The translations under genes and the position numbers were made by a program. Shown here in pieces: positions 12,803 through 26,772 of a stretch of DNA of 64,000 nt (its first letter is position 1; each line of letters begins with the position of its first letter). The stretch is from an uncultured Coriobacteriia bacterium (GTDB lineage Bacteria; Actinomycetota; Coriobacteriia; Coriobacteriales; QAMH01): contig CABRZR010000001.1 of the NCBI GenBank assembly GCA_902475535.1, positions 92,677 through 156,676 on the forward strand. Direction: 5' to 3'. Under the pieces are notes generated by a model. It ran no database searches. It saw only the letters and a program-made list of their open reading frames with translations, and was not told the DNA's origin.

Positions 12803-12883
12803 GAGCATGTCCGATCTTGGTCGGCAAAAATTCGGTGATTCGACCGAAAACGTTCGGCGTTTTTGTTAGATTCGCCTGCAATC

Positions 12884-13783
12884 ATGGGGGTCAAGACCAT
12901 GTCGATGAAGCTTGGAGGACCGATGGATAGCAAGGAGATAGAGAAGCGCAGGTTGACGCTCGATGATCACATGCACCACACGAAGGACGGCGTGGAGTTT
13001 TGGTACGCGCGAGAAGTAATGGGGGTCTTCGGATATACCCAATGGCGCAGGTTCGAGGAGACGATAAAGCGTGCCATGATATCGCTCGAGTCTAGCAAAA
13101 CCCCTGTTAGTGACCATTTTGCCGACATTGGCAAAATGGTTCCTCTCGGGAGTGGCGCGGAGCGATTAGTAAAGGACTACATGCTCACGCGCTATGCCTG
13201 CTACCTCATCGCGCAAAACGGCGATCCGCACAAGGAGGAAATAGCATTTGCTCAGAGCTACTTCGCCCTTCAAACGCGCAAGCAAGAGCTCATCGAGCAG
13301 CGCATGTTGGAGCTGCGCAGGCTTACGGAGAGAGATGCCCTTACGGAGTCCGAGAAGGTGCTTGCCGCCATAGCCTTCGAGCGAGGTGTGGATCAGCGGG
13401 GGTTCGCGACCATTAAATCAAAGGGGGACGAGGTCTTGTTCGGCGGAAACAAAACGAAGGCCATGAAGAAACGCCTTGGCGTGCCCGAGAAGAAGCCCCT
13501 TGCCGATGTTCTTCCCGACGTGACCATGGCAGCCAAGAACCTCGCGAACTCAATGACGCCACACAACGCCGAGTCGAAGGATCTGCGCGGTGTGAGGCAA
13601 ATCGGCGATGAGCACCTCCAGAACAATAAGAGCGTGCGCGGCACTCTCGTGGCGCGCGGCATCAAGCCGGAAGATTTGCCACCGGAGGAGGATGCAAAGA
13701 AGCTGAAGCGCAGGGTGGAGGCAGACGAGCGAAAGCTCAGGCAAGACGCGTCCGGGTTCGGGCCGGCGCCCCAGGACCTATAG
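12884..13783 (+). CDS. dinD: DNA-damage-inducible protein D (DinD-like)
   Basis: It is colinear with E. coli DinD as I remember it: ...WYAREVMGVFGY..., DHFADIGKMVPLGSGAERLVKDYMLTRYACYLIAQNGDP..., AQSYFALQTRKQEL. The start is uncertain (12863-12923). Confidence 0.75.
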   Translation: MGVKTMSMKLGGPMDSKEIEKRRLTLDDHMHHTKDGVEFWYAREVMGVFGYTQWRRFEETIKRAMISLESSKTPVSDHFADIGKMVPLGSGAERLVKDYMLTRYACYLIAQNGDPHKEEIAFAQSYFALQTRKQELIEQRMLELRRLTERDALTESEKVLAAIAFERGVDQRGFATIKSKGDEVLFGGNKTKAMKKRLGVPEKKPLADVLPDVTMAAKNLANSMTPHNAESKDLRGVRQIGDEHLQNNKSVRGTLVARGIKPEDLPPEEDAKKLKRRVEADERKLRQDASGFGPAPQDL

Positions 13784-13897: not shown

Positions 13898-13913
13898 TTT
13901 GTTGCGCAACAGA
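13898..13913. promoter_or_regulatory. TTTGTTGCGCAACAGA palindrome (candidate operator, site 1)
   Basis: Core TGTTGCGCAACA is a perfect 12-bp palindrome about 130 bp upstream of the CDS at 14045. About 30 bp of context is shared with site 2. Confidence 0.4.
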
Positions 13914-14044
13914 ATTCACCCCCCCCCCCTTATTCTTAAACAGATTTGGATTGTTCCCATGGCTGGACGCTAGGGAACCAGAACAAGAGGCTGCCTTGGG
14001 ATATAAAGGCCCTTGCGTATTTTTCGACAAAGGGAGGCATTATC

Positions 14045-14353
14045 ATGAGTTCCTACGCTTATTCTTCCACTGCTTCTTCCAGCACAAGCGGTGTTTTAAT
14101 CATCCTTCTGTTCATCGTTGCGATTGTGGTGCTTGTGGCATGGCTCGTTGCCACAAAGATGTTCATTGATCTTGCTCAAAAGAAAGACCCGCGGTTTTAT
14201 AGGACGGGGGTACTGTGGTTTGTCGGCATTTTCGCAACACCGATTGTCGTCGGTTTGTATGTATGTGCGATGACCGACAAGCGGAGCGCCACCTCCTCTG
14301 CCAACAACCGAAATGATGCAGATGCCCTTAACAGGGAACTTCCGTCTATCTAA
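14045..14353 (+). CDS. Small 2-TM membrane protein (PLD_N-like), paralog of 17798..18079
   Basis: RBS AAGGGAGG. Two TM helices are present. The motif VLWFVGIFATPIVVGLYVCAM resembles PLDc_N small proteins. It ends in ELPSI, while the paralog ends in ELPSV. Confidence 0.6.
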   Translation: MSSYAYSSTASSSTSGVLIILLFIVAIVVLVAWLVATKMFIDLAQKKDPRFYRTGVLWFVGIFATPIVVGLYVCAMTDKRSATSSANNRNDADALNRELPSI

Positions 14354-14362
14354 GGTGTAGCC

Positions 14363-15895
14363 GTGAGCGATTACAAAGTTGTTTTTCGAGAAGATAGTCA
14401 AAGCGATAATGCGACTGGAATAATGTGGGAGGAAAACTGCCCCATCCTAATTGAGGCAATTCAAGTATCCCGCGATGTTCAGACGGGCGAAGCATATCTC
14501 CAGCTGAAGTTTCGTAACGTTAGCAGTGAAGAGGTCTGTTCCCTTAAGGCGACGGCTATAGCAACCTTTGAAAATGGGGAGAGAGAAGACGTCGAAATAG
14601 TTCTATTGGATGCAGATGTGGAGCCAGGGAGAATCCGTAAGCCAGCTCCGATCCTTCTCAAGCGCGGGGACGTTTCCGAGGTCAGCGTAAAAATATGCTC
14701 CCTCAAGCTTCCATCTGGAGACTGGAAGTCGACGAAAAAAACGATACCTGTCCCCCGACCGAAGCAGGCTCGTCTTTCCGATAAGGCGCAAACGGAGCGC
14801 TCCCTCCAGTGGCATCCTAATCCCTCCGATTCCAAGATGCTCTACAAGGACTTCGCACTGGACAAGGAAATTGACGATCGCGAATCATGGTGGGTTTGCC
14901 CCTGTGGACAACTGAACGTCAATCGCGAGGATTGTCTGCTATGCAACACCCCAAAAACCTTCTGGCGCGAACATCCTGCTGACAACGACCGGCTTGAAAA
15001 AGAGGCGGACGAAAGAGCAGAAAAAGAGGCAGAGGAGCGAGCGCTGCAGGAAGCCGAGCAGAAGGAAAGAGCGAAAAAGAACAAGCGAATCAGGCGCATC
15101 GTGCTCACTACGAGCTTGATCGTCGTTGCCGTTATTCTTGCTATCGTGGCGGTGTTTCAAATCGTGCGTTGCGTTGTTCCCGGTGCTTATGTTGTCACCC
15201 GCTGCACGACTACGGATAGCAAAGGAAACAAGGAAACCATCGAGTACGAGCTCGATGACCGTGGGAATGTAGTAAAAGAGATAGAAGATGGGGACAAGTC
15301 TGAATGTACATATGAGCGCGATGACTACGGAGTTGTCACGAGAATGGACGATAATGAATTTGTAGTCGAGTCAGTCGATGATGGTGGGCAACCCACCAAG
15401 ATCAAGTGTTACTTTGTAGTCGAGTCAGTCGATGATGATGGACAGCCCACCAAGATCAAGTCTCAAACGAGAGAATGCAATATAGAGTGGTTTGGGGAGG
15501 GAAAAATACGCAGCATAGAATGGACCTCCTACGATGACCCAACCCGTTTCTCCAGCGATAGCTACAACGAAAACGGAGAGCTCCTAGCTTCAGATTATGG
15601 CCATTCTGATCACACTGTTGATCACGATAGCTATTCGTATGAATATGACTCAAGTGGGCGCGTAATAGCCGATACAGAAACCGGGGAATACGATTATCAG
15701 GGCGTGCCGCATTCCTATGACATCACGACAAAGTATACCTACGACAATCACGGCAACGTGATTAGGGCAGAGTCAGAACGCGGCACGAGTGTTACCGAAT
15801 GGGAATACACCTACGTAATGAACCCGTCTCCCGCCGCAATGGTGAAAAGCAGGTGTTTCCTGGGACAGGAGAGGCTCCTATCACCTCCGTTTTAG
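14363..15895 (+). CDS. Zinc-ribbon single-pass membrane protein with a YD/RHS-like repeat ectodomain, paralog of 18088..19683
   Basis: The N-terminal domain of about 130 aa is alignable with 18088 (MSDYKVVFRED / MSEYKVIFRAD). A WWVCPCGQLNVNREDCLLC zinc ribbon, an E/K/R coiled segment and a TM helix follow. YD-type repeats include YEYDSSGRVIAD and YTYDNHGNVIRAE. Confidence 0.65.
   Translation: MSDYKVVFREDSQSDNATGIMWEENCPILIEAIQVSRDVQTGEAYLQLKFRNVSSEEVCSLKATAIATFENGEREDVEIVLLDADVEPGRIRKPAPILLKRGDVSEVSVKICSLKLPSGDWKSTKKTIPVPRPKQARLSDKAQTERSLQWHPNPSDSKMLYKDFALDKEIDDRESWWVCPCGQLNVNREDCLLCNTPKTFWREHPADNDRLEKEADERAEKEAEERALQEAEQKERAKKNKRIRRIVLTTSLIVVAVILAIVAVFQIVRCVVPGAYVVTRCTTTDSKGNKETIEYELDDRGNVVKEIEDGDKSECTYERDDYGVVTRMDDNEFVVESVDDGGQPTKIKCYFVVESVDDDGQPTKIKSQTRECNIEWFGEGKIRSIEWTSYDDPTRFSSDSYNENGELLASDYGHSDHTVDHDSYSYEYDSSGRVIADTETGEYDYQGVPHSYDITTKYTYDNHGNVIRAESERGTSVTEWEYTYVMNPSPAAMVKSRCFLGQERLLSPPF
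15359..15470 (+). repeat. Tandem duplication of about 54-57 bp inside CDS 14363..15895
   Basis: TTTGTAGTCGAGTCAGTCGATGATGGTGGGCAACCCACCAAGATCAAG is repeated immediately with a few changes. The protein reads FVVESVDDGGQPTKIK / FVVESVDDDGQPTKIK. Confidence 0.9.
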
Positions 15896-15984
15896 CGAAG
15901 TACATAACGACCCATCTCCTTCGTCCATGTCGGTGATGATGTAGCGGACGCTTTTGTCCAGCCCCGCCGCTTGCCGCCGCGAAA

Positions 15985-16000
15985 TTTGTTGCGCAACAGA
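15985..16000. promoter_or_regulatory. TTTGTTGCGCAACAGA palindrome (candidate operator, site 2)
   Basis: The 16-mer is identical to site 1 and lies about 110 bp upstream of the CDS at 16112. The flank GCCGCCGCGAAA resembles the site 1 flank. Confidence 0.4.
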
Positions 16001-16111
16001 ATCGAGAAATTCTCCAATACGATGCCCTCCATAGCACGCATCCAATCATGCTGCTTTTTGGCTTATAGCAGGACTGCTTCGCTCGCTATAGCCGTAATCG
16101 AAAGGGAGGAC

Positions 16112-17056
16112 ATGATGGTGAAAAAACGTATGGGTAAAGCACGTATTCTGCTTCTCTTTCTGGCAGCAGTAATCGTGGTGTTTGCGTTTGTGGGCTGTGG
16201 CGGTGGTATTACCTCATCGAGTCTTGATGGCTATTGGATAGTGGAGCCGCAATCTGCATCAGATAAAGATTTGAAGGAAAAAGGAGTGTTCACGGTCTAC
16301 CAGTTTGAGGGAGAGAACACTTTCAGGTTGATTCTTCAGGTCCGCGGTGTAGAAGATTTCGTGAGAGAGGGAACTTATGAAATCAGAAACGGAAAGGTCT
16401 ATGTAAACCTTCCCGAAACCAGTGTGGGTTCCGGAACAGTCTCAGCTCACGGTGAAGCCATAGAAAACGCCGAGATTACAGTCAACGGCGAAACGCTAAA
16501 AACAACTGCGATAGCAACCAATGGTGCAGAGACCATCGCAAACAAGGTTACAGATGCGCAATACCAAGAGGAAGTCGCAGCCGCTGCGGCTCTTGGTCCC
16601 CAGAAGATTTCTATTGGCGAGAGCATAACAACGACGACCGCGGTTTTCACTGTAGACTCCATGGCTTTTGTTGATGAGATATACCCTTCAGACACATCCG
16701 GTTACTACACCTATATGTCAAAGCAAGACGGCCAGTCGTATCTCCTGGCAAGCGTTACCTATATGAATCCTGCCACGGAATACGAGGTGCCGGGCTATGC
16801 GACCCAAGCCTCCTTCTCCGTGGGCGGCAATACCTATGAAGCCGAGATAGAAATTGACGCGGGGTCCCGCTTTGGTCCGAGCTATAGGGTCGAGGCAAAG
16901 GAGACGTCGCGCATGTACATATACTGCCTGGTTCCAGATGCCGTGAAAGATGCCGGCGAAGTTAAGCTGACCTGGAGCATTCCCAACGAGCAGTCTTATA
17001 TGACTACCTACTACAGATCCTCGTATCCCCACGACGAGTTTTCCGTGGCGATGTAG
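16112..17056 (+). CDS. Lipoprotein with a DUF4352-like C-terminal domain
   Basis: RBS AAGGGAGGA. The lipobox is LLLFLAAVIVVFAFVGC-GGG. The C-terminal beta-rich region (VFTVDSMAFVD...LLASVTYMN...KLTWSIPN) resembles DUF4352 immunoprotective domains. Confidence 0.6.
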   Translation: MMVKKRMGKARILLLFLAAVIVVFAFVGCGGGITSSSLDGYWIVEPQSASDKDLKEKGVFTVYQFEGENTFRLILQVRGVEDFVREGTYEIRNGKVYVNLPETSVGSGTVSAHGEAIENAEITVNGETLKTTAIATNGAETIANKVTDAQYQEEVAAAAALGPQKISIGESITTTTAVFTVDSMAFVDEIYPSDTSGYYTYMSKQDGQSYLLASVTYMNPATEYEVPGYATQASFSVGGNTYEAEIEIDAGSRFGPSYRVEAKETSRMYIYCLVPDAVKDAGEVKLTWSIPNEQSYMTTYYRSSYPHDEFSVAM

Positions 17057-17136
17057 GTAAAGGCCTGGTGTCATGGCGATGCTGTTTGAAATCCCCATAT
17101 TACCCACTGCGAACAAGGCAGTCTGGAGGGTAAACG

Positions 17137-17718
17137 ATGAGTGACAATGACAATGCTGTCGAAACTCCCCCTATGGTCGAGGATGCCCCCAGCGTCCCCG
17201 CCCCATCGACCGTTCGCGAGAAGGCGCCGCAGCCATCTCCCGAAAACGTCAGCTCTCCTAAGAACGAAAAGCGTCAGAAGAAGACTGTCCTGATTGTCGT
17301 TATCGCCGTCGCGGTCGTAGTTGTGCTATTGGCGGCTATTGGCATCAGCCAGTGTGCGTTTTTCGCCACTCCCGAACAACATGCTCGACAGTTGCTAATC
17401 GGGAAATGGGAGGGTTATGGCACGAGCGTCAATGGGAAAACAAATGCGGTGACTCCAAATTCGATGACAGTGGAGTTTTCGAATGATGGCTTCAAATTGA
17501 ATCTAAAGGATTCAAAGGGCGTGACTTCGTATAGTGGCGGAAAGGACGACTGGAATGTCCGCGAAACGGGTGAGGACGTCGACGATATTTCCTACACGAT
17601 TGATCTCGAAGGAAAGTTCTTTAATGGCCAGCTTCATCTCGACGAAACTGAAGAGGAAATGTACCTCTTCATGAGCTCGATAGATGATTCGCTCATTATG
17701 GTGTTTAAGCGAGCGTGA
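17137..17718 (+). CDS. Membrane-anchored hypothetical protein (N-in, single TM, lipocalin-like ectodomain)
   Basis: RBS GGAGGG. A Pro-rich N-terminus is followed by the TM helix VLIVVIAVAVVVVLLAAIGI. I recognise no family. Confidence 0.5.
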   Translation: MSDNDNAVETPPMVEDAPSVPAPSTVREKAPQPSPENVSSPKNEKRQKKTVLIVVIAVAVVVVLLAAIGISQCAFFATPEQHARQLLIGKWEGYGTSVNGKTNAVTPNSMTVEFSNDGFKLNLKDSKGVTSYSGGKDDWNVRETGEDVDDISYTIDLEGKFFNGQLHLDETEEEMYLFMSSIDDSLIMVFKRA

Positions 17719-17797
17719 TGCTTTTCTTGGATTTGCGGGAACAGCTCTTCCAACTTCCGTTGCACCAACCTCATCAACAGGAAAGGAAATTATCGTC

Positions 17798-18079
17798 ATG
17801 TACTACTATTCGGGATTTGTCGGTTTCATGGGGTTCGTCACAATAGTCATCGCGATTGTCGTTCTCGTTGCGTGGATAATGTCGGTCTATATGTTCGTCG
17901 AGCGTGCCAAGGAGAAGAACCCTAAGATAACCGGCACCGGTTCGCTGTGGTTCATGGGTATCTTTGCCTCTCCCGTCGTGCTCGGTCTCTACGTTATAAG
18001 CATGCCTGACGCACGCCAGCGTGTGGAGACCCATGCAGGGTCCCCTGTGGCGATGCAGGACGAGCTTCCGTCTGTATAG
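17798..18079 (+). CDS. Small 2-TM membrane protein (PLD_N-like), paralog of 14045..14353
   Basis: MYYYSGFVGFMGFVTIVIAIVVLVAWIMSVYMFVERAKEKNPKITGTGSLWFMGIFASPVVLGLYVISM aligns with 14045 throughout. The RBS is GGAAAGGA. Confidence 0.6.
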   Translation: MYYYSGFVGFMGFVTIVIAIVVLVAWIMSVYMFVERAKEKNPKITGTGSLWFMGIFASPVVLGLYVISMPDARQRVETHAGSPVAMQDELPSV

Positions 18080-18087
18080 GGCCCGTC

Positions 18088-19683
18088 ATGAGCGAATACA
18101 AGGTTATTTTCCGAGCGGACGTCGATACGTCTACCGTGACGTGGGAACCCCCATGCCCACTGATGTTCGAGGCCATTCAGATTGCTCGTCATACGCGAAC
18201 CGCCGAGGCCTACCTCCAGGGAAAGGTACGCAACATCGGCGATCAGGAGATAAGTGCCTTCCAAGCAACGATTGCCGTTTGCTACGAGGACGGGTCAGAG
18301 CAAGAGGTGGAGTTCAAACCGCTTGATGCCGACATCGTTCCCGGTAGGGCCTATCAGCTGACTCCAGTACCTCTCGATCAGGGAACCGCAGTTAGAGCAA
18401 GCGGGAGGATAGAGTCCGTAAAGAACGAGTGGGGGCGTACCATCTGGGAAAGCTCTGCGGATCTGATTTCACCTCCCGAGCCCATTCATCTCCACTTGAC
18501 GACAAAAGCTCAAGATGAACGAAGCAGATTGTGGGCAAAGGCGTTTTCAAATGGGTCGTTGAGGCACGACCCGCAAATAGCGCATCTCGCTCGTACTCAC
18601 GATGCCGATGACCATGATGAATGGTGGGTGTGTCCCTGCGGTCAGGTCAACGTCAATCTTGCCAATTGCCTGTCCTGTGGATTGCCCTTAGCCTCGTGGA
18701 GCGAGGTGCCCACCGACAACGAGACCCTCGAGAAGATTGCCGACGAGCGCATCAAGAAGGAAGAGGAGGAGCGCGCCGCAAGAAAGGAAAAACGCGACCA
18801 GGCTGTCGCTAAATCCAAGGCCGCCGCTCTCAAGTTCCTGAAGATTGGCGTTCCCATCATCGTCGGGATAGTTGTCGTCGTGCTCGCCCTCATCTTCTTG
18901 ATCATCCCGACCGTGCGTTATAACAGTGCAAACGGTCTTGCCGAGGCTGCACAGACAAACGAGGAATACCAACGGGCCTACGATGCTTTTCTCGATCTAG
19001 GTGACCAGGGCGATTCCCCGCAGCGTCTCATTGCTGTTGCGACCGCCGCGGGTGACGCCGCGTACAATTCCGAAGATTACGAGAATGCGGCCTATTGGTA
19101 TGACCTTTCTGGAGACGACGAACTCTCTCAAAAGGCGAAGATGGCCTACGTCCAGGAGCACCAGAGCGCCGATGACGAGTTGACCTTCACGTACCTCAAA
19201 GAGCTCGTCGCTAACGAATACGAGGGAGCCGGAGAGCTCTATGAGCAGCTGTTCGGGTGGACCTTCGAGTTTTCAGTAGTTTCCTACAAAGACTACGCTG
19301 CTGCTGGTAACGGATGGACTCAAGGTCGGTCGGTACTTCCTAAAGCTGCTGGATATGATTCCCCTGCGTTGCTTATCATGCCAAAAGGTGGGGTGTCTGG
19401 TAGTGGAATCAAACTTGATCTTGCAATTGAGGAAATCGATGCCAAAAGTCAGATTGGTTACACGGGACAGTGGCATAAATCAGATACGAAGACCGTTTCG
19501 TTTCTTAATAGAGATGGCGAAATGTATGTAGATGAAAAGGGTGGGTCCAGCTACACAAAGATGGAAAAGCCCTTCGTTTTCATTAGTCTTGGAAGCAACA
19601 TGTATGACGAGGCGTGGCGTGTGACGGTGACTGACGGCGAGACGAGGGCCGTGCTCTTTACCGGCGAGATACGAACGTCCTAG
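18088..19683 (+). CDS. Zinc-ribbon single-pass membrane protein with a TPR/Sel1-like plus beta-rich ectodomain, paralog of 14363..15895
   Basis: The architecture matches 14363 up to the TM helix (EWWVCPCGQVNVNLANCLSC, an E/K/R-rich segment, TM IGVPIIVGIVVVVLALIFLII). The ectodomain is unrelated. Confidence 0.65.
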   Translation: MSEYKVIFRADVDTSTVTWEPPCPLMFEAIQIARHTRTAEAYLQGKVRNIGDQEISAFQATIAVCYEDGSEQEVEFKPLDADIVPGRAYQLTPVPLDQGTAVRASGRIESVKNEWGRTIWESSADLISPPEPIHLHLTTKAQDERSRLWAKAFSNGSLRHDPQIAHLARTHDADDHDEWWVCPCGQVNVNLANCLSCGLPLASWSEVPTDNETLEKIADERIKKEEEERAARKEKRDQAVAKSKAAALKFLKIGVPIIVGIVVVVLALIFLIIPTVRYNSANGLAEAAQTNEEYQRAYDAFLDLGDQGDSPQRLIAVATAAGDAAYNSEDYENAAYWYDLSGDDELSQKAKMAYVQEHQSADDELTFTYLKELVANEYEGAGELYEQLFGWTFEFSVVSYKDYAAAGNGWTQGRSVLPKAAGYDSPALLIMPKGGVSGSGIKLDLAIEEIDAKSQIGYTGQWHKSDTKTVSFLNRDGEMYVDEKGGSSYTKMEKPFVFISLGSNMYDEAWRVTVTDGETRAVLFTGEIRTS

Positions 19684-19733
19684 TCCTGTATCAGACGGTA
19701 TGGATTATCGCTGATACCAGCAATGTACATGAG

Positions 19734-19757
19734 GGCGCGTCGAAGGACGCGCCTTTT
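19734..19757 (+). terminator. Rho-independent terminator after 18088..19683
   Basis: GGCGCGTC-GAAG-GACGCGCC followed by TTTT. Confidence 0.75.
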
Positions 19758-20015
19758 CCCTGTGTCCATCTCGCTACCCATACGTCCTAGAACTCTATAT
19801 ACTTGCCGTAGTACCCGCCCTATCGAAAGGCATCACAATGGCTCGGCTATCGTTTTGCATGGACGAAGAGAGCGCGGCTTGCCCGGGCGAAGACGCTGCC
19901 GGATGGGAAAACGGCTGGCCGCCGGGTTTCTTCGACTTGTATGGCAGCAGTCCGGATTTCCCCGAGGCCGAAGATCTCGAGCTTGCTCCCATCGGCTGCC
20001 TCGGCCCCTAAACCC

Positions 20016-20972
20016 CTACCGCACGCCCGCGATCACCACGTACCGCGTGCTCTTGCCGAAGACCAGCTCGTCACCGGGCTTGATAGCCACGGGCTCCCCC
20101 GTCCAGCCGCCCCGTTCGTCAGCCGGCGGCTCCACCACGACCTCGGAGCGGTCTGCGCCACTCACCAGCACGGTGCCGTTCGTCGATCCGGTGCCCTTGA
20201 CGTACCACTCGCCCGCGTTGTCGTGCCAGATGCGCGCATGATGGCGCGAGACGTCGGCCGCCACGTCGCTCAGGGAATCCTTCCCCGTCGCAAAGGCGCC
20301 CACCTCGATCTCGCTGTTCTCGCTGGGATCAAGCCAATGGGGCGACCCCATCACGTACCCATCCATCACGCGCAAGAGCCCCAGGGTCACGGACCTCTCC
20401 GGCACGTCCCAGTCGCGCACCTTCTTGGAATGCGGCGTGACAAGCGGCGTCGCCACCGGGCTTCCGTGGATTTCCTCGGCAAAGGCAAAGGCGCGGGTCG
20501 TTGCCTCGGCCACGCTAGCACTCAACGCCGCCGTCACAAAGAGCACCATGGCGATCTCGACGCGCTCCTCGACTCTAAATTCGCCGTTGTCGGACAGGCG
20601 GGCGAGCATGTTGAGGTATGGGGCGGTGTTTTGCCCGCGGTGGCTCAGGGCCGTCACCATCTCGCGTCCCGCCGTCCCCGCTATCATCGTCATGATCGCC
20701 TGGTTGCTCATGCGCTTCTTGAGGCGCGCGACGATGCGCATGGCGCATTTCTCGCAGTCGATGAAGTAGTCGCTTTTCACGGATTCCACCGGGGCGTGGA
20801 CGAGATAGCGCGAGATCCACGTCCGGTCGTTTACCCGGCTTATGGGACTCGTCCCACCCGTCAGCGGCTTTTCCGAGAGGATGAGCGTGGCCAGGTCCTT
20901 GTAGCTGATATGACCGTGCTTCTTCAGGATGGAAAACAATGCTCCCAGCGGGGTTGACGGGGTCTTTGCCAT
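20016..20972 (-). CDS. FHA-domain protein with an uncharacterised N-terminal domain of about 230 aa (copy 1)
   Basis: The C-terminal FHA signature is DVSRHHARIWHD...GSTNGTVLV...IKPGDELVFG. I do not recognise the N-terminal domain. The gene starts 15 nt after the upstream kinase gene ends. Confidence 0.75.
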   Translation of the reverse strand: MAKTPSTPLGALFSILKKHGHISYKDLATLILSEKPLTGGTSPISRVNDRTWISRYLVHAPVESVKSDYFIDCEKCAMRIVARLKKRMSNQAIMTMIAGTAGREMVTALSHRGQNTAPYLNMLARLSDNGEFRVEERVEIAMVLFVTAALSASVAEATTRAFAFAEEIHGSPVATPLVTPHSKKVRDWDVPERSVTLGLLRVMDGYVMGSPHWLDPSENSEIEVGAFATGKDSLSDVAADVSRHHARIWHDNAGEWYVKGTGSTNGTVLVSGADRSEVVVEPPADERGGWTGEPVAIKPGDELVFGKSTRYVVIAGVR

Positions 20973-20987
20973 GGAGTGCTCCTCTCC

Positions 20988-22373
20988 TCACGTTCGCGGT
21001 GTCCGGCGGGCGAGCCTTATGAGCGCCGACACGCCCACGATTGCCAAGGCAACGGTGCCGCCTGCGATGATTCGCGAACGTCCCGCCCTCCTGGCTCTAC
21101 CTACTCGCCCCCTTGCCCTCGTCGTGTTGCTCACGCAGGGTGAGAGTGGGTTTCCCCAGAGGCCGTTTCTGATGTTTGCGCTATAGGAGTCGATGAAGTC
21201 CGAGAGTGCCTTCTCCATCTCCCTTGCCGTGGGTCTACGCGCCTGCATGGGATCCAGACAAGCGAGGATCAGGTCGTCGAGCTGGCCATCCACCGCGGTC
21301 AGGACCCGTGCGAGTTCCCTGTCCGACGGCCTTCGCCCGCAGTGCGCCACCGCCTCTTCGACGAGCCGCGCCACCGACGCCTCATGGCCGAGCGTCGCTC
21401 TGATGCTGGCCGATGCCCCGTGAGCGCCCATGAGGCTCCGGGGCCAACGTCCGGTCTTCTGGAGGTAATAGGAGCGCTTCCTGCCTCCTCTTTCCAGGTC
21501 GAAGGGCGTACGGCCGTCCAGCAGCAGGTAGAGCACGCTAGCTGCGGCATAGACGTCCACCGCAGGGTCCTTGCGCAGGGTGTCGATACCGGCAACGTCT
21601 TCGGTGAGCATCTCCGGCGGGGCGAACTCCGGGGTTGCCCCTCGCAGGACGCCGTACTTCTGCGTGAGGGAGGCACGATGGTCGGGAAGCATCGCCGAGC
21701 CAAAGTCCACGAGCTTCAGGTCGAAGTGCCCCAGGTCCACCTGCTCCTCGAGCGTGTGCCTCGAGGTGTCGATCATGATGTTGGATGTCGAGATGTCACG
21801 ATGCACCACGCTGTTCTCGAGCGTGTCCATGCGGGCGAGGAGCGCGAAGAGGTCACGTCCCAGCTGCGCCGCCGTCAGCGGCGAAAGCCTTCCCGCCTCG
21901 TCCACGAAGAGGTGCCTGAGTGCCGATTGCAGCGTCTCGCCCTCGATCCATTCCATGACGATGGCATCTCTTCCGTCCAGGCGTCCAAGCCCGTAGAGCT
22001 TCGGAAATCCCCGTATGCCCGAAAGGGTGCGCAGGGTCTGGTACTCTCGCATGAACGCCTCGTGGGCGACGGCACGGTCCATGTCATCGGTCCGTGTGGC
22101 AGGTTGCGACGTGGTGTCGCGCGCTGCATCCGGGTTGTCCATGACCTTCACGGCGACGGGTTTGCCCCAGACGTCCTCGCCATAGAGAAGCCAGCCAATC
22201 CCTCCCTGGCGGCAACGGGTCCTGTCGACGAAGAGGGAGGAGAACCTCCGCACATGTGCCTCCTGCTCATCGGGAGGCAGGGTCCAGGGCGCTGAGAAGC
22301 CGTCCAGGTGAACGACCTGCAGTCCGGCTGTGCCGTGCTCGTTGTGCGTTTCCGGACATGAGGGGTTTTCCAT
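20988..22373 (-). CDS. Ser/Thr protein kinase, tail-anchored by one C-terminal TM helix (copy 1)
   Basis: Hanks motifs are present: VAVKVM, VHRDISTSNIMI, VDFGSA and FAPPE. The C-terminal TM helix is GGTVALAIVGVSALIRLA, and there is no ectodomain. Confidence 0.85.
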   Translation of the reverse strand: MENPSCPETHNEHGTAGLQVVHLDGFSAPWTLPPDEQEAHVRRFSSLFVDRTRCRQGGIGWLLYGEDVWGKPVAVKVMDNPDAARDTTSQPATRTDDMDRAVAHEAFMREYQTLRTLSGIRGFPKLYGLGRLDGRDAIVMEWIEGETLQSALRHLFVDEAGRLSPLTAAQLGRDLFALLARMDTLENSVVHRDISTSNIMIDTSRHTLEEQVDLGHFDLKLVDFGSAMLPDHRASLTQKYGVLRGATPEFAPPEMLTEDVAGIDTLRKDPAVDVYAAASVLYLLLDGRTPFDLERGGRKRSYYLQKTGRWPRSLMGAHGASASIRATLGHEASVARLVEEAVAHCGRRPSDRELARVLTAVDGQLDDLILACLDPMQARRPTAREMEKALSDFIDSYSANIRNGLWGNPLSPCVSNTTRARGRVGRARRAGRSRIIAGGTVALAIVGVSALIRLARRTPRT

Positions 22374-22453
22374 GGTGCGCGACGTTGTTTTCTACTAAGG
22401 GCGGCGGTTAGAGGGCGTCGAAAACCGGGTGGATTTGTCCCACCCGGGAATAA

Positions 22454-22502
22454 TTGCGCAACTATCATATAGTGCAAATTCCGAAATTTGTTGCACAACA
22501 AA
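22454..22502. promoter_or_regulatory. TTGCGCAA box plus TTTGTTGCACAACAAA palindrome (candidate operator, site 3)
   Basis: Read on the minus strand, TTTGTTGTGCAACAAA is followed by 16 nt, then TATATGATAG, then TTGCGCAA. This lies about 80 bp upstream of the kinase copy 1 start. Confidence 0.4.
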
Positions 22503-22552
22503 CGCGAGGTCAGCCGAGGGTTGAGGGCGCGCTTCCCTAGCCGTCGGCTCCT

Positions 22553-23533
22553 CTATCGCACGCCCGCGATCACCACGTATCGCGTGCTCTTGCCGAACAC
22601 GAGCACGTCGCCGGGCTTGATCACCACGGGCGTGCCCTCCCATCCCCCTCGCTCGTCAGCCGGCGGCTCCACCACGACCTCGCGACGGTCCGCGCCGCTG
22701 ATGAGCACGGTTCCGTTCTTCGACCCCATCCCCTCGACGTACCACTCGCCCGCGTCGTCGTGCCAGATGCGCGCATGGTGCCCCGAGACGTCGCTCTCGA
22801 CATCGGTAATGTCGCCCGGTCCCGTCGCAAAGGCGCCCACCTCGCATTGCTCTGCGAGCTCGGCATCGAGCCAGTGCGGCGATCCCATCACGTAGCCGTC
22901 CATCACGCGCAAGAGCCCCAGGTCCGTCATTTGCTCGTCGATGTGGCATCGCGCCTCAACGTCTTCCGCGTCCGGGGAGCATGGCGTGATGAGCGGCGTC
23001 ACCTTCGATGACCCGTGGATTTCGTTGGTGAAGTCGAGCGCGCAAGCCGTCGCCTTCGCGACATCGGCGCTCAGGGCGGCCGTCACGAAGAGGACCATGG
23101 CGATCTCCACGTGCTCCTCGGATCCGGATTCGTCCCCTCCGTTCAGCCTCGCGAGCATGTTGAGATAGGGAGTGGTGTCCTGCCCGACCTCTTCCAGGGC
23201 GATGACCAGCTCCTTTCCGGGTTCTCCTGCGACCATCTGCATGATTTCGCGGTTTCCCAGCGTGCTGCCCCTGCGCTTCTTGAGACGGGCGATGATGCGC
23301 AGGGCGCACTTTTCGTAGCTCACGAAGTACTCGTCCTTCACGGCCTCGATCGGTGCATGCACGAGGTAGCGCGAAACCCAGGTCCGGTCGTTCACACGGC
23401 TTGCGGGACTGACGCCTCCTGCTAATGGCTTTTCCGAGAGGATAAGCGAGGCCAGCTCCTTGTAGCTCACCTTTCCATATTTCTTCAGGATGGAGAACAG
23501 GGCTCCCAGCGGAGTCAATGTGGTTCTTGCCAC
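22553..23533 (-). CDS. FHA-domain protein with an uncharacterised N-terminal domain (copy 2)
   Basis: Colinear paralog of 20016..20972 (MARTTLTPLGALFSILKKYGKVSYKELASLILSEKPL...; FHA region DVSGHHARIWHD...GSKNGTVLI). The 3-prime end is near-identical to copy 1 at the DNA level. Confidence 0.75.
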   Translation of the reverse strand: MARTTLTPLGALFSILKKYGKVSYKELASLILSEKPLAGGVSPASRVNDRTWVSRYLVHAPIEAVKDEYFVSYEKCALRIIARLKKRRGSTLGNREIMQMVAGEPGKELVIALEEVGQDTTPYLNMLARLNGGDESGSEEHVEIAMVLFVTAALSADVAKATACALDFTNEIHGSSKVTPLITPCSPDAEDVEARCHIDEQMTDLGLLRVMDGYVMGSPHWLDAELAEQCEVGAFATGPGDITDVESDVSGHHARIWHDDAGEWYVEGMGSKNGTVLISGADRREVVVEPPADERGGWEGTPVVIKPGDVLVFGKSTRYVVIAGVR

Positions 23534-23555
23534 GGCTACCCTTTCTGCTAACTCG

Positions 23556-25283
23556 TTATGATGCCATGCTAGCCCGTGTTTTTTTCGTCGGCATCATGCG
23601 CGCCTCCTCGATGATGATGCCAAAGGACAGGGCGCCCCACGACAGCGTTGCCGATACGGCCAGTGCGCACAGCAATAGCCAGAAGGTTGCTGGTGTGGCA
23701 AACGCCGTCCCTAGTACGAAGGCGAGCACGAGCAAGGTGCCCACGCCCACGCCGCCGCCAGTCCACGGGAGTGCCGATGGCTTGCCGCGTGTCGCGATAC
23801 GCGCGATGCCTCCGGTGATTGCGGGAAGCCACAGGAGAGCTGCGATCGCCAAGCCACTCAGGGCACCGGTCCACCGAATCGGGCCGAGCGCGACGGTCGC
23901 CTCGTTCGAGTCGACGAGGCCCGCAGTCACGAAGCTCACGGCAAAGAGCAAGATGGCCGCACCTATGCCCACGCCGATGTCCCAACGCCGCGACCTTCTC
24001 GCGCTGGCGACACGTGCCCGACGTTCAAAGGCATTGCTAGCACATGGACTCAATGGCTTTTCTGCAAGGGCGTTTTCGATGTTTTCGTCATACGCCTCGA
24101 CAAACTGACCGAGGGCTTCCTGCACCTCGGTTGCGCGGGGACGGTACTCTTGAATGGAATCAAGGCACGCGAGGATCACGTCGTCGAGCTGGCCATCGAC
24201 CGCAGAGAGTGCCGCGGCCACTTTCCTCTCCGTGGGCTGCTCGCCAATTCTCTGCGCTGCTTTGCGCACGAGCTTTGCCGTCTGCGGTTCGTGCTCGAGG
24301 GTGATGTCAATCGCTGTCGAGGCGGCGTGCGCACCTTTTAGTCCGCGCGGCAGCCGCTCCGTCTTGGCCAGGTAATACGAGCGCTCCCCCTCTTCGTTCT
24401 TGCCAAGATCGAAGGGCGTGTGTCCACTCAAGAGCAGGTAGAGTACGCTTGCCGCGGCATAGACGTCCACCGCCGAGCTCTTGCGCATGGTCGAGACGTT
24501 GGCGATGTCCTCCGTCAGCATTTCCGGAGGGGCAAAGTCCGGCGTCGCACCACGGGGCATTCCGTACCGTTGCGTGAGGGATGACGAGCGAGCGGGAAGC
24601 ACTGCAGATCCAAAGTCCACGAGCTTCAGGTCGAAGCTTCCCGACTCCACCTGTTCATCGAGCGTGTGCGTCGACGTGTCGATCATGATGTTCGAGGTCG
24701 AGATGTCGCGGTGAACTATGCCGTCTTCGAGGATTTCCATGCGGGCGAGGAGGGCGAAGAGGTCACGTCCCAGCTGCGCCACCGTCAGGGGCGAGAGCCT
24801 GTTTTCATCGTCAATGGAGAGATGCCGAATTGCCGTGGCGAGGGTCTCGCCCTCGATCCACTCCATGACGATGGCGTTCTTGCCGTCCAGACGACCCGAC
24901 CCGTACAGGCGCGGAAATCCTCGCACGCCCGACAACGTGCGCAGGGTCTCGTATTCGCGACGAAACGCCACGTTGGTGATGTCGTGCATGGGTGAGGATG
25001 CAGCGTCGTCGGATGGCGCGGATGACACTGCCCGCGCGTCTTCGATGCCCATGGTCTTCACGGCTACCGGCTTGCCCCAGGTATCTTCGCCGTAGAAGAC
25101 CTGTCCCAGACCACCTTCCCTGCAGCGGTTCTCATCGATGAAGATCGTGGAGAAGCGCCGGTTATACGCCTCTTGCTCATCGGGAGGCAGAGTGCGAGGA
25201 GCGGTGAAGCCCTCCAGTCGTGCCACGCGCATGCTGGCATTGTCGCGACTGTCGTGGGGTTTATGGTTCTGCGGCTTTTCCAT
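23556..25283 (-). CDS. Ser/Thr protein kinase with a multi-pass C-terminal membrane domain (copy 2)
   Basis: VAVKTM, VHRDISTSNIMI, VDFGSA and FAPPE are present. The C-terminal part of about 150 aa holds 4-5 hydrophobic helices. Confidence 0.85.
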   Translation of the reverse strand: MEKPQNHKPHDSRDNASMRVARLEGFTAPRTLPPDEQEAYNRRFSTIFIDENRCREGGLGQVFYGEDTWGKPVAVKTMGIEDARAVSSAPSDDAASSPMHDITNVAFRREYETLRTLSGVRGFPRLYGSGRLDGKNAIVMEWIEGETLATAIRHLSIDDENRLSPLTVAQLGRDLFALLARMEILEDGIVHRDISTSNIMIDTSTHTLDEQVESGSFDLKLVDFGSAVLPARSSSLTQRYGMPRGATPDFAPPEMLTEDIANVSTMRKSSAVDVYAAASVLYLLLSGHTPFDLGKNEEGERSYYLAKTERLPRGLKGAHAASTAIDITLEHEPQTAKLVRKAAQRIGEQPTERKVAAALSAVDGQLDDVILACLDSIQEYRPRATEVQEALGQFVEAYDENIENALAEKPLSPCASNAFERRARVASARRSRRWDIGVGIGAAILLFAVSFVTAGLVDSNEATVALGPIRWTGALSGLAIAALLWLPAITGGIARIATRGKPSALPWTGGGVGVGTLLVLAFVLGTAFATPATFWLLLCALAVSATLSWGALSFGIIIEEARMMPTKKTRASMAS

Positions 25284-25315
25284 GATGCGGGGTGCGGTTT
25301 TCTGCGAAACGGTGG

Positions 25316-26239
25316 CTAGACCTGATTGAGTGCCTGGTAGACGTTATACAGGTCATCCAGCGTGTAAATGGTGCGCCCGTCCACGGACGCCTCGATCATA
25401 TGACCTTCGACGATCGGCAAAAAGCAGCTGGGGTGGGCACCGGGATCATCGCAGCCGTCGGCTGCGAAGAGGAACTTCTGGAACAGTTTGGCCGCGCGAT
25501 TCAGGGACTGCCAGGCAGTGGTGACGGCGGCACGCTGACTTTCGCTGGCTGCGTCGACGAAGTCGGGCAGATGGATCTTGTGCTCGTAGTAATCGGACCA
25601 CCTGATGCAATCATCGCACACGTCCATCGCAGCGTTTGCGCTTATCCAGTTCCTTATGCAGTTAGGATCCATGCCAGGACTGTAGTTCCAGTATATCGGC
25701 GAGTCGGCGACGAGCGTGGCAAGCTGCGTGTAGTAGTCCCTGACGCTGTTGTAGTCATTCACGAACTCTTCTTGGGGCGATGGCGTGGGGTCGGGAGTTG
25801 GGGTATAGGGATACCCTTCGGTGCTGGACTGCGCTTCCTGGGCTGTGAGCTGGCTCCCCGAATCTGCTGGTGCGTTTGTGCCGGGGGTGGTCACGCCTCC
25901 GGGGCCTGCCGCTCCGATGGCGCTGACGCCGGCTCCGATGACTGATGCCACCCCAGGGGTATTCGCAGCGCCCGCGGCATCCGAGCCCGCACCTGCCGCT
26001 TCCGAGGCCGGTTGGTTGTCTGCAGATCCAAAGAGGGGATTCTGGAACAGCCCATCGGATTGCTCGCCCAGTACTGGAGGTACCGCAAAGACGAAAAGCG
26101 CGAGGGAGCACGCCACCAGAAGCGTTGACGTGGTCACGAGGGCTCTGTACGCCTTGGGAAGGTGATGAAAGAAGGCGCCTATCTTCGAAGATGGCTTTGA
26201 GGTCACGGCACTCTCCTTCGGTGTTCGAACAATGCGCAT
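25316..26239 (-). CDS. Membrane-anchored or secreted hypothetical protein
   Basis: An N-terminal TM or signal anchor (LVTTSTLLVACSLALFVFAV) is followed by an A/G/P-rich linker and a domain of about 170 aa with no family I recognise. The gene ends 32 nt upstream of kinase copy 2. Confidence 0.55.
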   Translation of the reverse strand: MRIVRTPKESAVTSKPSSKIGAFFHHLPKAYRALVTTSTLLVACSLALFVFAVPPVLGEQSDGLFQNPLFGSADNQPASEAAGAGSDAAGAANTPGVASVIGAGVSAIGAAGPGGVTTPGTNAPADSGSQLTAQEAQSSTEGYPYTPTPDPTPSPQEEFVNDYNSVRDYYTQLATLVADSPIYWNYSPGMDPNCIRNWISANAAMDVCDDCIRWSDYYEHKIHLPDFVDAASESQRAAVTTAWQSLNRAAKLFQKFLFAADGCDDPGAHPSCFLPIVEGHMIEASVDGRTIYTLDDLYNVYQALNQV

Positions 26240-26282
26240 ATGCCACGGTGAACGGAAAGATCAGTCCATTCATCATGAAATG

Positions 26283-26330
26283 TTGCGCAAGTATTATATT
26301 TCGCCGGAGCTGGCTTTTGTTGTGCAACAA
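26283..26330. promoter_or_regulatory. TTGCGCAA box plus TTTGTTGTGCAACAA palindrome (candidate operator, site 4)
   Basis: Read on the minus strand, TTGTTGCACAACAAA is followed by 18 nt, then ATATAATAC, then TTGCGCAA. This ends 44 bp upstream of the ATG at 26239 and has the same architecture as site 3. Confidence 0.45.
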
Positions 26331-26411: not shown

Positions 26412-26460
26412 TTGACAAAAAGTTAGTCGAGTCTAATATGTAGTTAACATTAGCTAACTA
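26412..26460 (+). promoter_or_regulatory. feoA promoter with candidate DtxR/IdeR-type operator(s)
   Basis: TTGACA, a 16-nt spacer, then TAATAT. TTAGTCGAGTCTAA lies in the spacer. TAGTTAACATTAGCTAACTA (26441-26460) lies just downstream and has TTAGC/GCTAA half-sites like the IdeR consensus TTAGGTTAGGCTAACCTAA. Confidence 0.55.
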
Positions 26461-26754: not shown

Positions 26755-26772
26755 TGTTAGCATATGCTAACA
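26755..26772. promoter_or_regulatory. Perfect 18-bp palindrome TGTTAGCATATGCTAACA (candidate DtxR-family operator upstream of feoB)
   Basis: Perfect dyad containing TTAGC/GCTAA half-sites. A near copy, TGTTAGCATACCCTAACA, lies at 31790-31807. Confidence 0.6.

Follow-up and report, generated by a model that had tools for sequence, protein, structure and literature searches.

Promoter palindromes of the 13.9-26.4 kb block

The window considered here, that is the whole 64-kb stretch of contig CABRZR010000001.1 from an uncultured Coriobacteriia bacterium, carries between 13.9 and 26.4 kb a block of genes for envelope proteins, Hanks-type kinases and proteins with a forkhead-associated (FHA) domain. 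Each of the four transcription units of this block, the only ones it has, is fronted by a copy of one palindrome, and very probably these copies belong to a shared operator and promoter cassette of a local regulon. The FHA protein is discussed below as the candidate binder.

The first two units lie on the plus strand. The putative operator O1 of promoter P1 (TGTTGCGCAACA, 13900-13911, centre about -37.5 from the inferred start) precedes target unit 1 (14045-15895), which encodes a small protein with two transmembrane (TM) segments (small-TM 1, 14045-14353, Shine-Dalgarno sequence AAGGGAGG) and a Zn-ribbon/TM/YD-repeat protein (Zn-ribbon protein 1, 14363-15895). It is followed by a 19-nt spacer (13912-13930) with a C11 homopolymer at 13919-13929 and by the -10 box TATTCT (13931-13936), a TAnnnT hexamer at the spacing found family-wide. 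The same sequence TGTTGCGCAACA forms the putative O1 of P2 (15987-15998), with the -10 box TACGAT (16018-16023) 19 nt past the palindrome, before target unit 2 (16112-19683, supported also by gene calls in L140), which comprises a lipoprotein, an anchored protein, a second small 2-TM protein and a second Zn-ribbon membrane protein. The remaining units lie on the minus strand. The putative O1 of P3 (TGTTGTGCAACA, 22489-22500) stands before kinase 1 (20988-22373; VAVK, HRD and DFG motifs present) and FHA protein 1 (20016-20972), a unit of 20016-22373; its -10 box TATGAT lies at 22464-22469 and a second putative operator, O2 (TTGCGCAA, 22454-22461), lies over the inferred start site. The putative O1 of P4 (TGTTGCACAACA, 26318-26329), with the -10 box TATAAT (26293-26298) and its own O2 (TTGCGCAA, 26283-26290), stands before a membrane-anchored Ser/Gly-rich ectoprotein (25316-26239), kinase 2 (23556-25283) and FHA protein 2 (22553-23533), a unit of 22553-26239. 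The catalytic motifs of the kinases are intact. The gene content of the four units agrees with that given in an earlier note made from the letters of this DNA.

Exact matches to TTGTTGNNCAACA are found four times in the window (13899-13911, 15986-15998, 22488-22500 and 26317-26329) and nowhere else in it, while 0.59 matches with at most one mismatch are expected by chance; none of 100 shuffles reached the observed count. The earlier claim that the palindrome precedes all four units and is absent from the rest of the window is thereby confirmed. Its inner 8-mer TTGCGCAA has only four copies in the 64 kb, two within sites 1 and 2 and two as the separate boxes O2. Read on the coding strand, all four sites consist of the 12-mer TGTTGNNCAACA, then exactly 19 nt, then TAnnnT (TATTCT, TACGAT, TATGAT and TATAAT at sites 1 to 4). 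The spacing of 16-18 nt that the earlier note gave for sites 3 and 4 describes the same geometry counted from a longer palindrome; measured from TGTTGNNCAACA it becomes 19 nt at all four sites. At the two kinase promoters (sites 3 and 4) the -10 box is followed after 2 nt by TTGCGCAA, and within the window a separate second box occurs at these two promoters only. Sites 1 and 2 have in common the 31-bp sequence GCCGCCGC(A/G)AAATTTGTTGCGCAACAGAAT with one mismatch, which bears out the roughly 30 bp noticed before.

A scan with the sigma-70 consensus gave no -35/-10 pair at any of the four window sites and no TTGACA-like hexamer, so that the dyad takes the place usually held by a -35 hexamer. With the -10 hexamer taken as -12 to -7, the dyad is centred at about -37.5 and the second box extends from about -4 to +4. 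An operator of LacI type was considered and dropped because the central dinucleotide is variable (CG, TG/CA, TA, AG), and a MerR-type promoter was dropped as the dyad lies upstream of the spacer and not within it.

Conservation and phasing of the dyad

The family of the FHA protein is small. FHA protein 1 found only 51 cluster representatives in a collection of 5.8 billion proteins, and a profile of its N-terminal 173 residues found 221 representatives at 50% identity, practically all of them 310-330 aa long (N-terminal domain plus FHA) or fragments. Among these 221 no alternative domain architecture occurs; the N-terminal domain is always fused to FHA. A scan of GTDB species genomes yielded 79 loci of 1.34 Mb in all, from Eggerthellaceae, Coriobacteriaceae, Slackia, Collinsella, Senegalimassilia, Adlercreutzia, Cryptobacterium and Enorma, including a few from obviously mis-binned metagenome-assembled genomes. 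On the evidence of these searches the family is confined to Coriobacteriia. The closest relatives of the window loci are uncultured human-gut Coriobacteriia (L001 with 97% identity, L002 and L078).

The FHA gene has a Hanks kinase gene directly upstream in 74 of the 79 loci, and the kinase is usually preceded by a gene for a TM-anchored, Ser/Gly-rich ectoprotein (clusters f2, f15 and f42). No pairwise similarity could be detected between f2 and f15, which are therefore called positional analogues only. Conservation of gene content ends with ectoprotein, kinase and FHA protein; around them lie housekeeping genes such as priA, nadABC and the gene of a principal sigma factor. In Aphodovivens-type genomes (L010:11024-12349, L011, L013, L076) priA lies before the operon, and the gene immediately after FHA encodes a full-length sigma-70 factor of the principal type, with regions 1.2, 2, 3 and 4. 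A scan with NCBIfam gave generic kinase matches only; likewise PADLOC gave generic kinase-domain matches and none for the FHA, Zn-ribbon, small-TM, lipoprotein and ectoprotein genes.

The dyad follows this operon closely. In the 1.34 Mb there are 55 copies of TGTTGNNCAACA against 0.65 expected from Markov-1 shuffles. All 55 cluster around the FHA gene, from -6 to +8 kb relative to its start; the outer flanks, about 380 kb in sum, are free of them, and the other 51 kb of the window likewise lack the palindrome. The earlier note had left room for yet another short dispersed repeat family, which this distribution, over the loci and the window, rejects. It could also be argued that the four copies are functionless leftovers of tandem duplications (module 1 to 2, kinase-FHA 1 to 2), given the 31 bp common to sites 1 and 2, the like layout of sites 3 and 4 and the paralogy of the gene modules. 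However, P2 fronts a lipoprotein gene which is not a paralogue of the gene behind P1, and the dyad with its spacing is kept in other genera in front of unrelated spacers and downstream genes. The distribution is strictly local, a scan of viral contigs gave 96 hits that were essentially all low-GC chance matches, and Rfam had no match. Leftovers or a repeat are thus an extremely improbable explanation.

The 55 copies from the loci and the 4 from the window were pooled into a set of 59 sites. Within a range of 5-39 nt, TAnnnT was found at spacing 19 in 40 orientation slots versus about one at any other spacing, and at 42 of the 59 sites the -10 box lies 18-19 nt past the palindrome. Matches to TATAAT in at least 5 of 6 positions occur 18-19 nt away at 25 sites, where the chance rate is 0.00076 per position. 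The consensus of 40 unique oriented promoters reads aATTTGTTGCgCAACAAAtt-N15-TAtaaT. The 19-nt spacers are unrelated between genera, while the palindrome and the -10 box are kept, as in a classical phylogenetic footprint. The consensus site is best described as a 20-bp dyad, AATTTGTTGC.GCAACAAATT, with a predicted centre about 37.5 bp upstream of the inferred start, where a -35 would be. The idea of a common cis-element tying the units into one regulon is well supported, since the palindrome recurs at the orthologous operon in many genera, is confined there and keeps its 19 nt to the -10 box.

A fixed spacing to the -10 box and the lack of TTGACA would also fit an alternative sigma factor with CAACA as its -35 element and an incidental palindromy. 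Yet it is full dyads (40 of 55 instances), not half-sites, that make up the excess at spacing 19: CAACA-N19-TAnnnT without the distal TGTTG arm stays at background level, with 15 cases versus 9-13 at other spacings, and 3 of the 15 are near-dyads. This restriction to full dyads favours a dimeric protein over a sigma -35 element. Moreover, 19 nt is long for a -35/-10 spacer of the sigma-70 family and no sigma gene is conserved across the loci, so that an alternative sigma factor is highly improbable.

The earlier note had also seen two operator elements at the kinase promoters, and this holds in several genera, where a second box over the start recurs directly past the -10 box of operon promoters. 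It reads TATAAT-GTTGCGCCAC in L010 and L011, boxes like GTTGCGCCAC occur also in L012, L017, L021, L078 and the window, and L037 has a full second dyad. Among the promoters compared, target promoters have no second box after the -10. In one locus (L040:12964) a single dyad is flanked on both sides by TAnnnT boxes 19 nt away and faces a 4-TM protein gene in one direction and a lipoprotein gene in the other; here one operator apparently serves two divergent promoters.

An unbiased scan covered 241 million metagenome records and hit the pattern TTTGTTGYRCAACA-N18/19-TATAAT 60 times. Sixteen of them, on contigs of at least 0.46 GC, are promoters of the kinase-FHA operon, some of them truncated copies (e.g. 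L131, with an f2-type ectoprotein gene downstream). The other hits at or above 0.46 GC (L081, L120 and a soil sequence repeated in L091, L117 and L132) look like chance, as do all those from low-GC DNA. The dyad is not described in the searchable literature, and the FHA family, the operator and the regulon appear to be undescribed.

The FHA protein as candidate binder

The two FHA proteins have the sequence profile and the fold of FHA domains. Pfam PF00498 matches them with E values of 2e-7 and 4e-7, the AlphaFold2 (AF2) model has a pLDDT of 88.5, and Foldseek finds FHA domains with probability 1.0 (ArnA as the best match, GarA, and EmbR, PDB 2FF4); a Foldseek search with the full protein returned FHA domains only. 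In the domain S242 and H245 (S-x-x-H) and the N-G-T motif are retained. The N-terminal domain of 170 residues is modelled as all-alpha with a pLDDT of 93.4, and Pfam had no significant match for residues 1-173. In a sequence-profile search of the PDB, residues 1-69 matched nothing and residues 71-163 matched designed helical repeats only. To the authors' eye alone, the segment DRTWISRYLVH may resemble the recognition helices of XRE proteins. Since no significant fold or profile match exists, the case for DNA binding by this domain is built on context and covariation.

With regard to context, the FHA protein is the only conserved cytoplasmic protein of the loci that is not an enzyme. Residues 36-61 of its N-terminal domain (P.L..G.SP.SR..DRTW.SR..VHAP) are nearly invariant, which matches the invariance of the half-sites and supports this protein as the binder. 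In FHA 1 the candidate DNA-reading segment (..SPISRVNDRTWISRY..) lies in codons 1-56 (20805-20972, minus strand) and contains the covarying residue R50. Just before the domain, Thr7-Pro8 is nearly invariant too; it is speculation that Thr7 may be a phosphosite.

Covariation was examined in promoters defined only by the core GTTGNNCAAC plus TAnnnT at 18-20 nt. Where residue 50 is Arg (DRTW), the outer T/A is present in 89 of 98 arms; where it is Lys (DKTW), in 0 of 16, and the operator there is RGTTG..CAACY instead of TGTTG..CAACA. Lys50 is found in L007 and L009 (and L016) within the main radiation and in the deep P0043/45/46 clade, and because starred branches separate the Lys50 lineages, at least two changes of Arg50 to Lys are needed. 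Base composition is not the cause of the operator change, as the GC of K-type lineages ranges from 0.48 to 0.68 and the AT-rich dyad is retained in R-type loci of 0.66-0.69 GC. Six loci have Asp-Pro in place of Arg50, and in none of them does GTTGNNCAAC occur; past the -10 box this clade shows other palindromes (TGCCCATTTGGGCA in L070, L071 and L074; CAATT-N5-AATTG in L061), none of them clade-wide. Nothing could be learned from contigs of P0032 and P0024, which are the R-type sisters of a K-type lineage. The change of Arg50 to Lys together with the outer operator base implicates the FHA protein, which is probably the binder of the dyad. The earlier proposal of FHA proteins with a winged helix-turn-helix as regulators can accordingly be kept in its first half, by the indirect route of operator-protein covariation in at least two lineages, and is not confirmed in its second, where no significant fold or profile match was obtained.

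Several observations weigh against this assignment. No more than two or three evolutionary events underlie the covariation. Searched with Foldseek against PDB and BFVD, the model of the N-terminal domain matched nothing significantly (no E below 1), and its matches to Pfam helix-turn-helix families are faint and below threshold (MerR_1 in 3 of 48 members with a best E of 0.0098, HTH_24 in 2, AbiEi_3_N in 1). The canonical Gly-Arg of FHA domains, whose Arg is the phosphothreonine ligand, has Ala in place of Arg throughout the family (G225-A226); with this ligand absent, phosphopeptide binding and the coupling of kinase to FHA protein may be atypical. Furthermore, an exact palindrome within 10 kb is missing from 44 of the 79 loci, and the Senegalimassilia group keeps Arg50 yet lacks the site. 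Its operon follows a trmL-like gene without a promoter gap of its own, and no alternative conserved dyad was found in loci of this type.

The N-terminal domain without a recognisable DNA-binding fold and the many family members without a site within 10 kb would fit a dyad bound by a regulator encoded elsewhere in the genome, with the kinase-FHA operon and its neighbours as mere targets. Against such an outside regulator it can be said that sites occur only around the operon (0 in the outer flanks and 0 in the rest of the window), that the high-GC metagenome hits are nearly all kinase-FHA operons, that the operator covaries with FHA residue 50 in at least two lineages, and that nothing beyond the operon genes is conserved in the loci. 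It is therefore considered unlikely.

Targets, proposed mechanism and related systems

Dyad promoters outside the operon face genes for small 2-TM proteins, Zn-ribbon membrane proteins and lipoproteins of the families seen in the window. Other genes behind them encode an Ltp-repeat lipoprotein, other TM proteins and a 311-aa coiled-coil protein, the last in Collinsella. Proteins with Ltp repeats (PF07553, E 4e-27) are encoded behind the dyad in Collinsella locus L067 (12144-13052), and this domain is known from a phage superinfection-exclusion lipoprotein. Pyruvate:ferredoxin oxidoreductase was dropped as a Collinsella target as the -10 box points to the divergent gene of the 311-aa coiled-coil protein. 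Since the genes behind dyad promoters differ and are mostly envelope genes, the regulon would be small, local and variable between species; in the window it is predicted to comprise two cassettes of envelope proteins (small-TM, Zn-ribbon and lipoprotein). The family's deepest clade (L242:4486-12006, L243:4387-12242, L246) has a longer operon, made up of DUF4282, Amidase_2, Zn-ribbon-VWA-YARHG, a 190-aa protein, kinase and FHA, with genes for DZR-type Zn-ribbon membrane proteins after the FHA gene; RGTTGCGCAACC dyad promoters precede these genes and the operon. As this clade shows the same association, the link of the FHA family with Zn-ribbon membrane proteins is old.

The spacer of P1 is variable in length. 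Zn-ribbon protein 1 is encoded identically on six contigs from other samples, four of which cover P1, and the C tract measures C8 (L140:2377), C9 (L142:1417), C10 (L141:1152), C10 (L144:49) and C11 in the window, with identical flanks; these lengths come from metagenome assemblies, where errors in homopolymers are a caveat. A fifth contig breaks off inside the tract. Only C11 yields the canonical 19 nt from operator to -10 box, and the pattern suggests slipped-strand phase variation of the P1 small-TM/Zn-ribbon cassette. One allele (L142:1390-1420) has the operator arm TGTTG changed to TTTTG and a 41-bp deletion just upstream, and looks like a naturally disabled P1. If phase variation through this length-variable tract is confirmed, P1 would join the few promoters of Coriobacteriia documented to be phase-variable.

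A few features around these units deserve a mention. A GC-rich hairpin of 9 bp (CCCGGGTGG-N5-CCACCCGG) with UUUUC after it lies in the leader of kinase 1 at 22420-22447 (minus strand), 10-35 nt past the inferred start of P3. Its fold is no better than that of shuffles (z -0.7); it may be a terminator of the upstream operon, an attenuator, or both. The block of lower GC begins with a DinD/Bro-N gene (12863-13783 and upstream; NCBIfam PRK11525, E 3e-98), and on a sister contig (L140:451-2248) a pair of HigB-like toxin and HTH_3 antitoxin lies beside the DinD/Bro-N gene. This neighbourhood suggests that the membrane-protein cassettes may sit in a mobile or variable island adjoining the conserved kinase-FHA operons. 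At 26441-26460 and 26755-26772 palindromes of TTAGC/GCTAA type (e.g. TGTTAGCATATGCTAACA) lie on either side of feoA and in front of feoB; they bear no relation to the dyad and look like the site of a metal regulator.

Taken together, the palindromes are probably operators of a promoter cassette in a signalling module specific to Coriobacteriia, made up of ectoprotein, Hanks kinase and FHA protein with its N-terminal domain, the last being the presumed binder. A dimer of the FHA protein would read the dyad through the N-terminal domain with the segment DRTWxSRY, Arg50 reading the outer base of each half-site, and the neighbouring kinase would alter its activity by phosphorylation or by docking to the FHA domain. 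At P1 and P2, which have a weak -10 box and a single site, the FHA protein would help RNA polymerase in the manner of a class II activator; the near-invariant spacing, the missing -35 hexamer and the weak -10 boxes of targets argue for this. At P3 and P4 the near-consensus -10 box and the second site over the start point to negative autoregulation, which this extra site would provide. Activation of targets combined with autorepression is given about an even chance.

The same operator and regulon could also be served by an FHA protein that is purely a repressor, the dyad covering the -35 region (and at P3 and P4 the start) until the kinase signal releases it. In favour of this, the site overlaps positions -45 to -30 and O2 the start, operon promoters with the consensus TATAAT should need no activator, and actinobacterial promoters often work on a TAnnnT box alone. 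On the other hand, the 19-nt spacing is near-invariant in 40 promoters of unrelated genes, as is needed for stereospecific contact with the polymerase and not for occlusion; target -10 boxes are weak (TATTCT, TACGAT, TAAGAT, TACGGT), and variation in the poly-C spacer of P1 matters only if spacing matters. Pure repression is accordingly judged possible and rather doubtful.

Carried to its end, activation with autorepression would give a one-step transmembrane pathway in which a Hanks kinase with its ectoprotein acts on an FHA activator of new DNA-binding fold and non-canonical FHA domain (dyad at -37.5, autorepressing), re-addressed by one change of Arg to Lys and controlling a regulon of fast-changing surface cassettes anchored by Zn-ribbon proteins, at least one of them phase-variable through poly-C. 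This full picture is tentative; if true, it would mean a combined sensory and stochastic switch of surface variation in gut commensals. The N-terminal part would be a candidate DNA-binding domain without a structural relative. The exchange R50K, going together with a T-to-A change of the outer operator base, would be a natural specificity switch, which makes the assignment of protein to DNA directly testable. The family is spread over Eggerthellaceae, Coriobacteriaceae and relatives, common human-gut Actinomycetota with almost no characterised regulation.

With respect to promoter layout, the nearest parallels are class II activator promoters, such as those with CRP or FNR at -41.5 and lambda cI at PRM. 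In both cases a dimer site (the dimer being presumed here) replaces the -35 at a fixed distance from the -10, and one palindrome can serve two divergent promoters, as in L040. The differences are the centre at about -37.5 and not -41.5, the half-site TGTTG with a 2-bp centre, and the activation, which is here a matter of prediction. Bordetella fim2, fim3 and fimX promoters carry a C-stretch (PMC1891110; PMC10172299). Like the tract of P1, it lies within the promoter of a surface-protein gene and differs in length between isolates; P1 belongs to another organism, regulator and gene class, and its variation is known from assembled lengths alone.

In Sulfolobus acidocaldarius ArnA and ArnB work with the kinases ArnC and ArnD (PMC6509490). 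In the Arn system an FHA protein with Zn-ribbon and vWA partners and Hanks kinases controls genes of surface structures, and the deepest clade described above has a Zn-ribbon-VWA gene; its set of FHA, vWA and Zn-ribbon genes is reminiscent of ArnA/ArnB. ArnA differs in having the Zn ribbon in its own chain and nothing that corresponds to the N-terminal domain, and no operator of the dyad kind is known for it. GarA and OdhI are FHA proteins switched by an N-terminal phosphothreonine. Like the protein discussed here, they are small cytoplasmic FHA proteins beside Hanks kinases in Actinomycetota, and Thr7-Pro8 could play the same role; GarA regulates enzymes, not DNA, and the phosphosite here is only a guess.

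Few transcription factors are known to be coupled directly to bacterial Hanks-type kinases; among those with an FHA domain the textbook case is EmbR. The PknH-EmbR pair of Mycobacterium tuberculosis consists of a Hanks kinase and an FHA-containing transcription factor (PDB 2FF4; PMC4601284). Both systems have the gene of a Ser/Thr kinase beside that of a regulator with an N-terminal DNA-binding part (putative here) and a C-terminal FHA domain, and both have envelope targets. EmbR is built from an OmpR-type winged helix and a BTAD domain (SARP family), while residues 1-173 of the present protein match neither; SARP proteins of the EmbR type use direct repeats in contrast to the dyad at -37.5; and the family described here lacks the canonical FHA Arg and is limited to Coriobacteriia. 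It would therefore represent a second family of FHA-kinase regulators, unrelated to EmbR, with a 20-bp operator, a fixed geometry and a local regulon that can be read from sequence.

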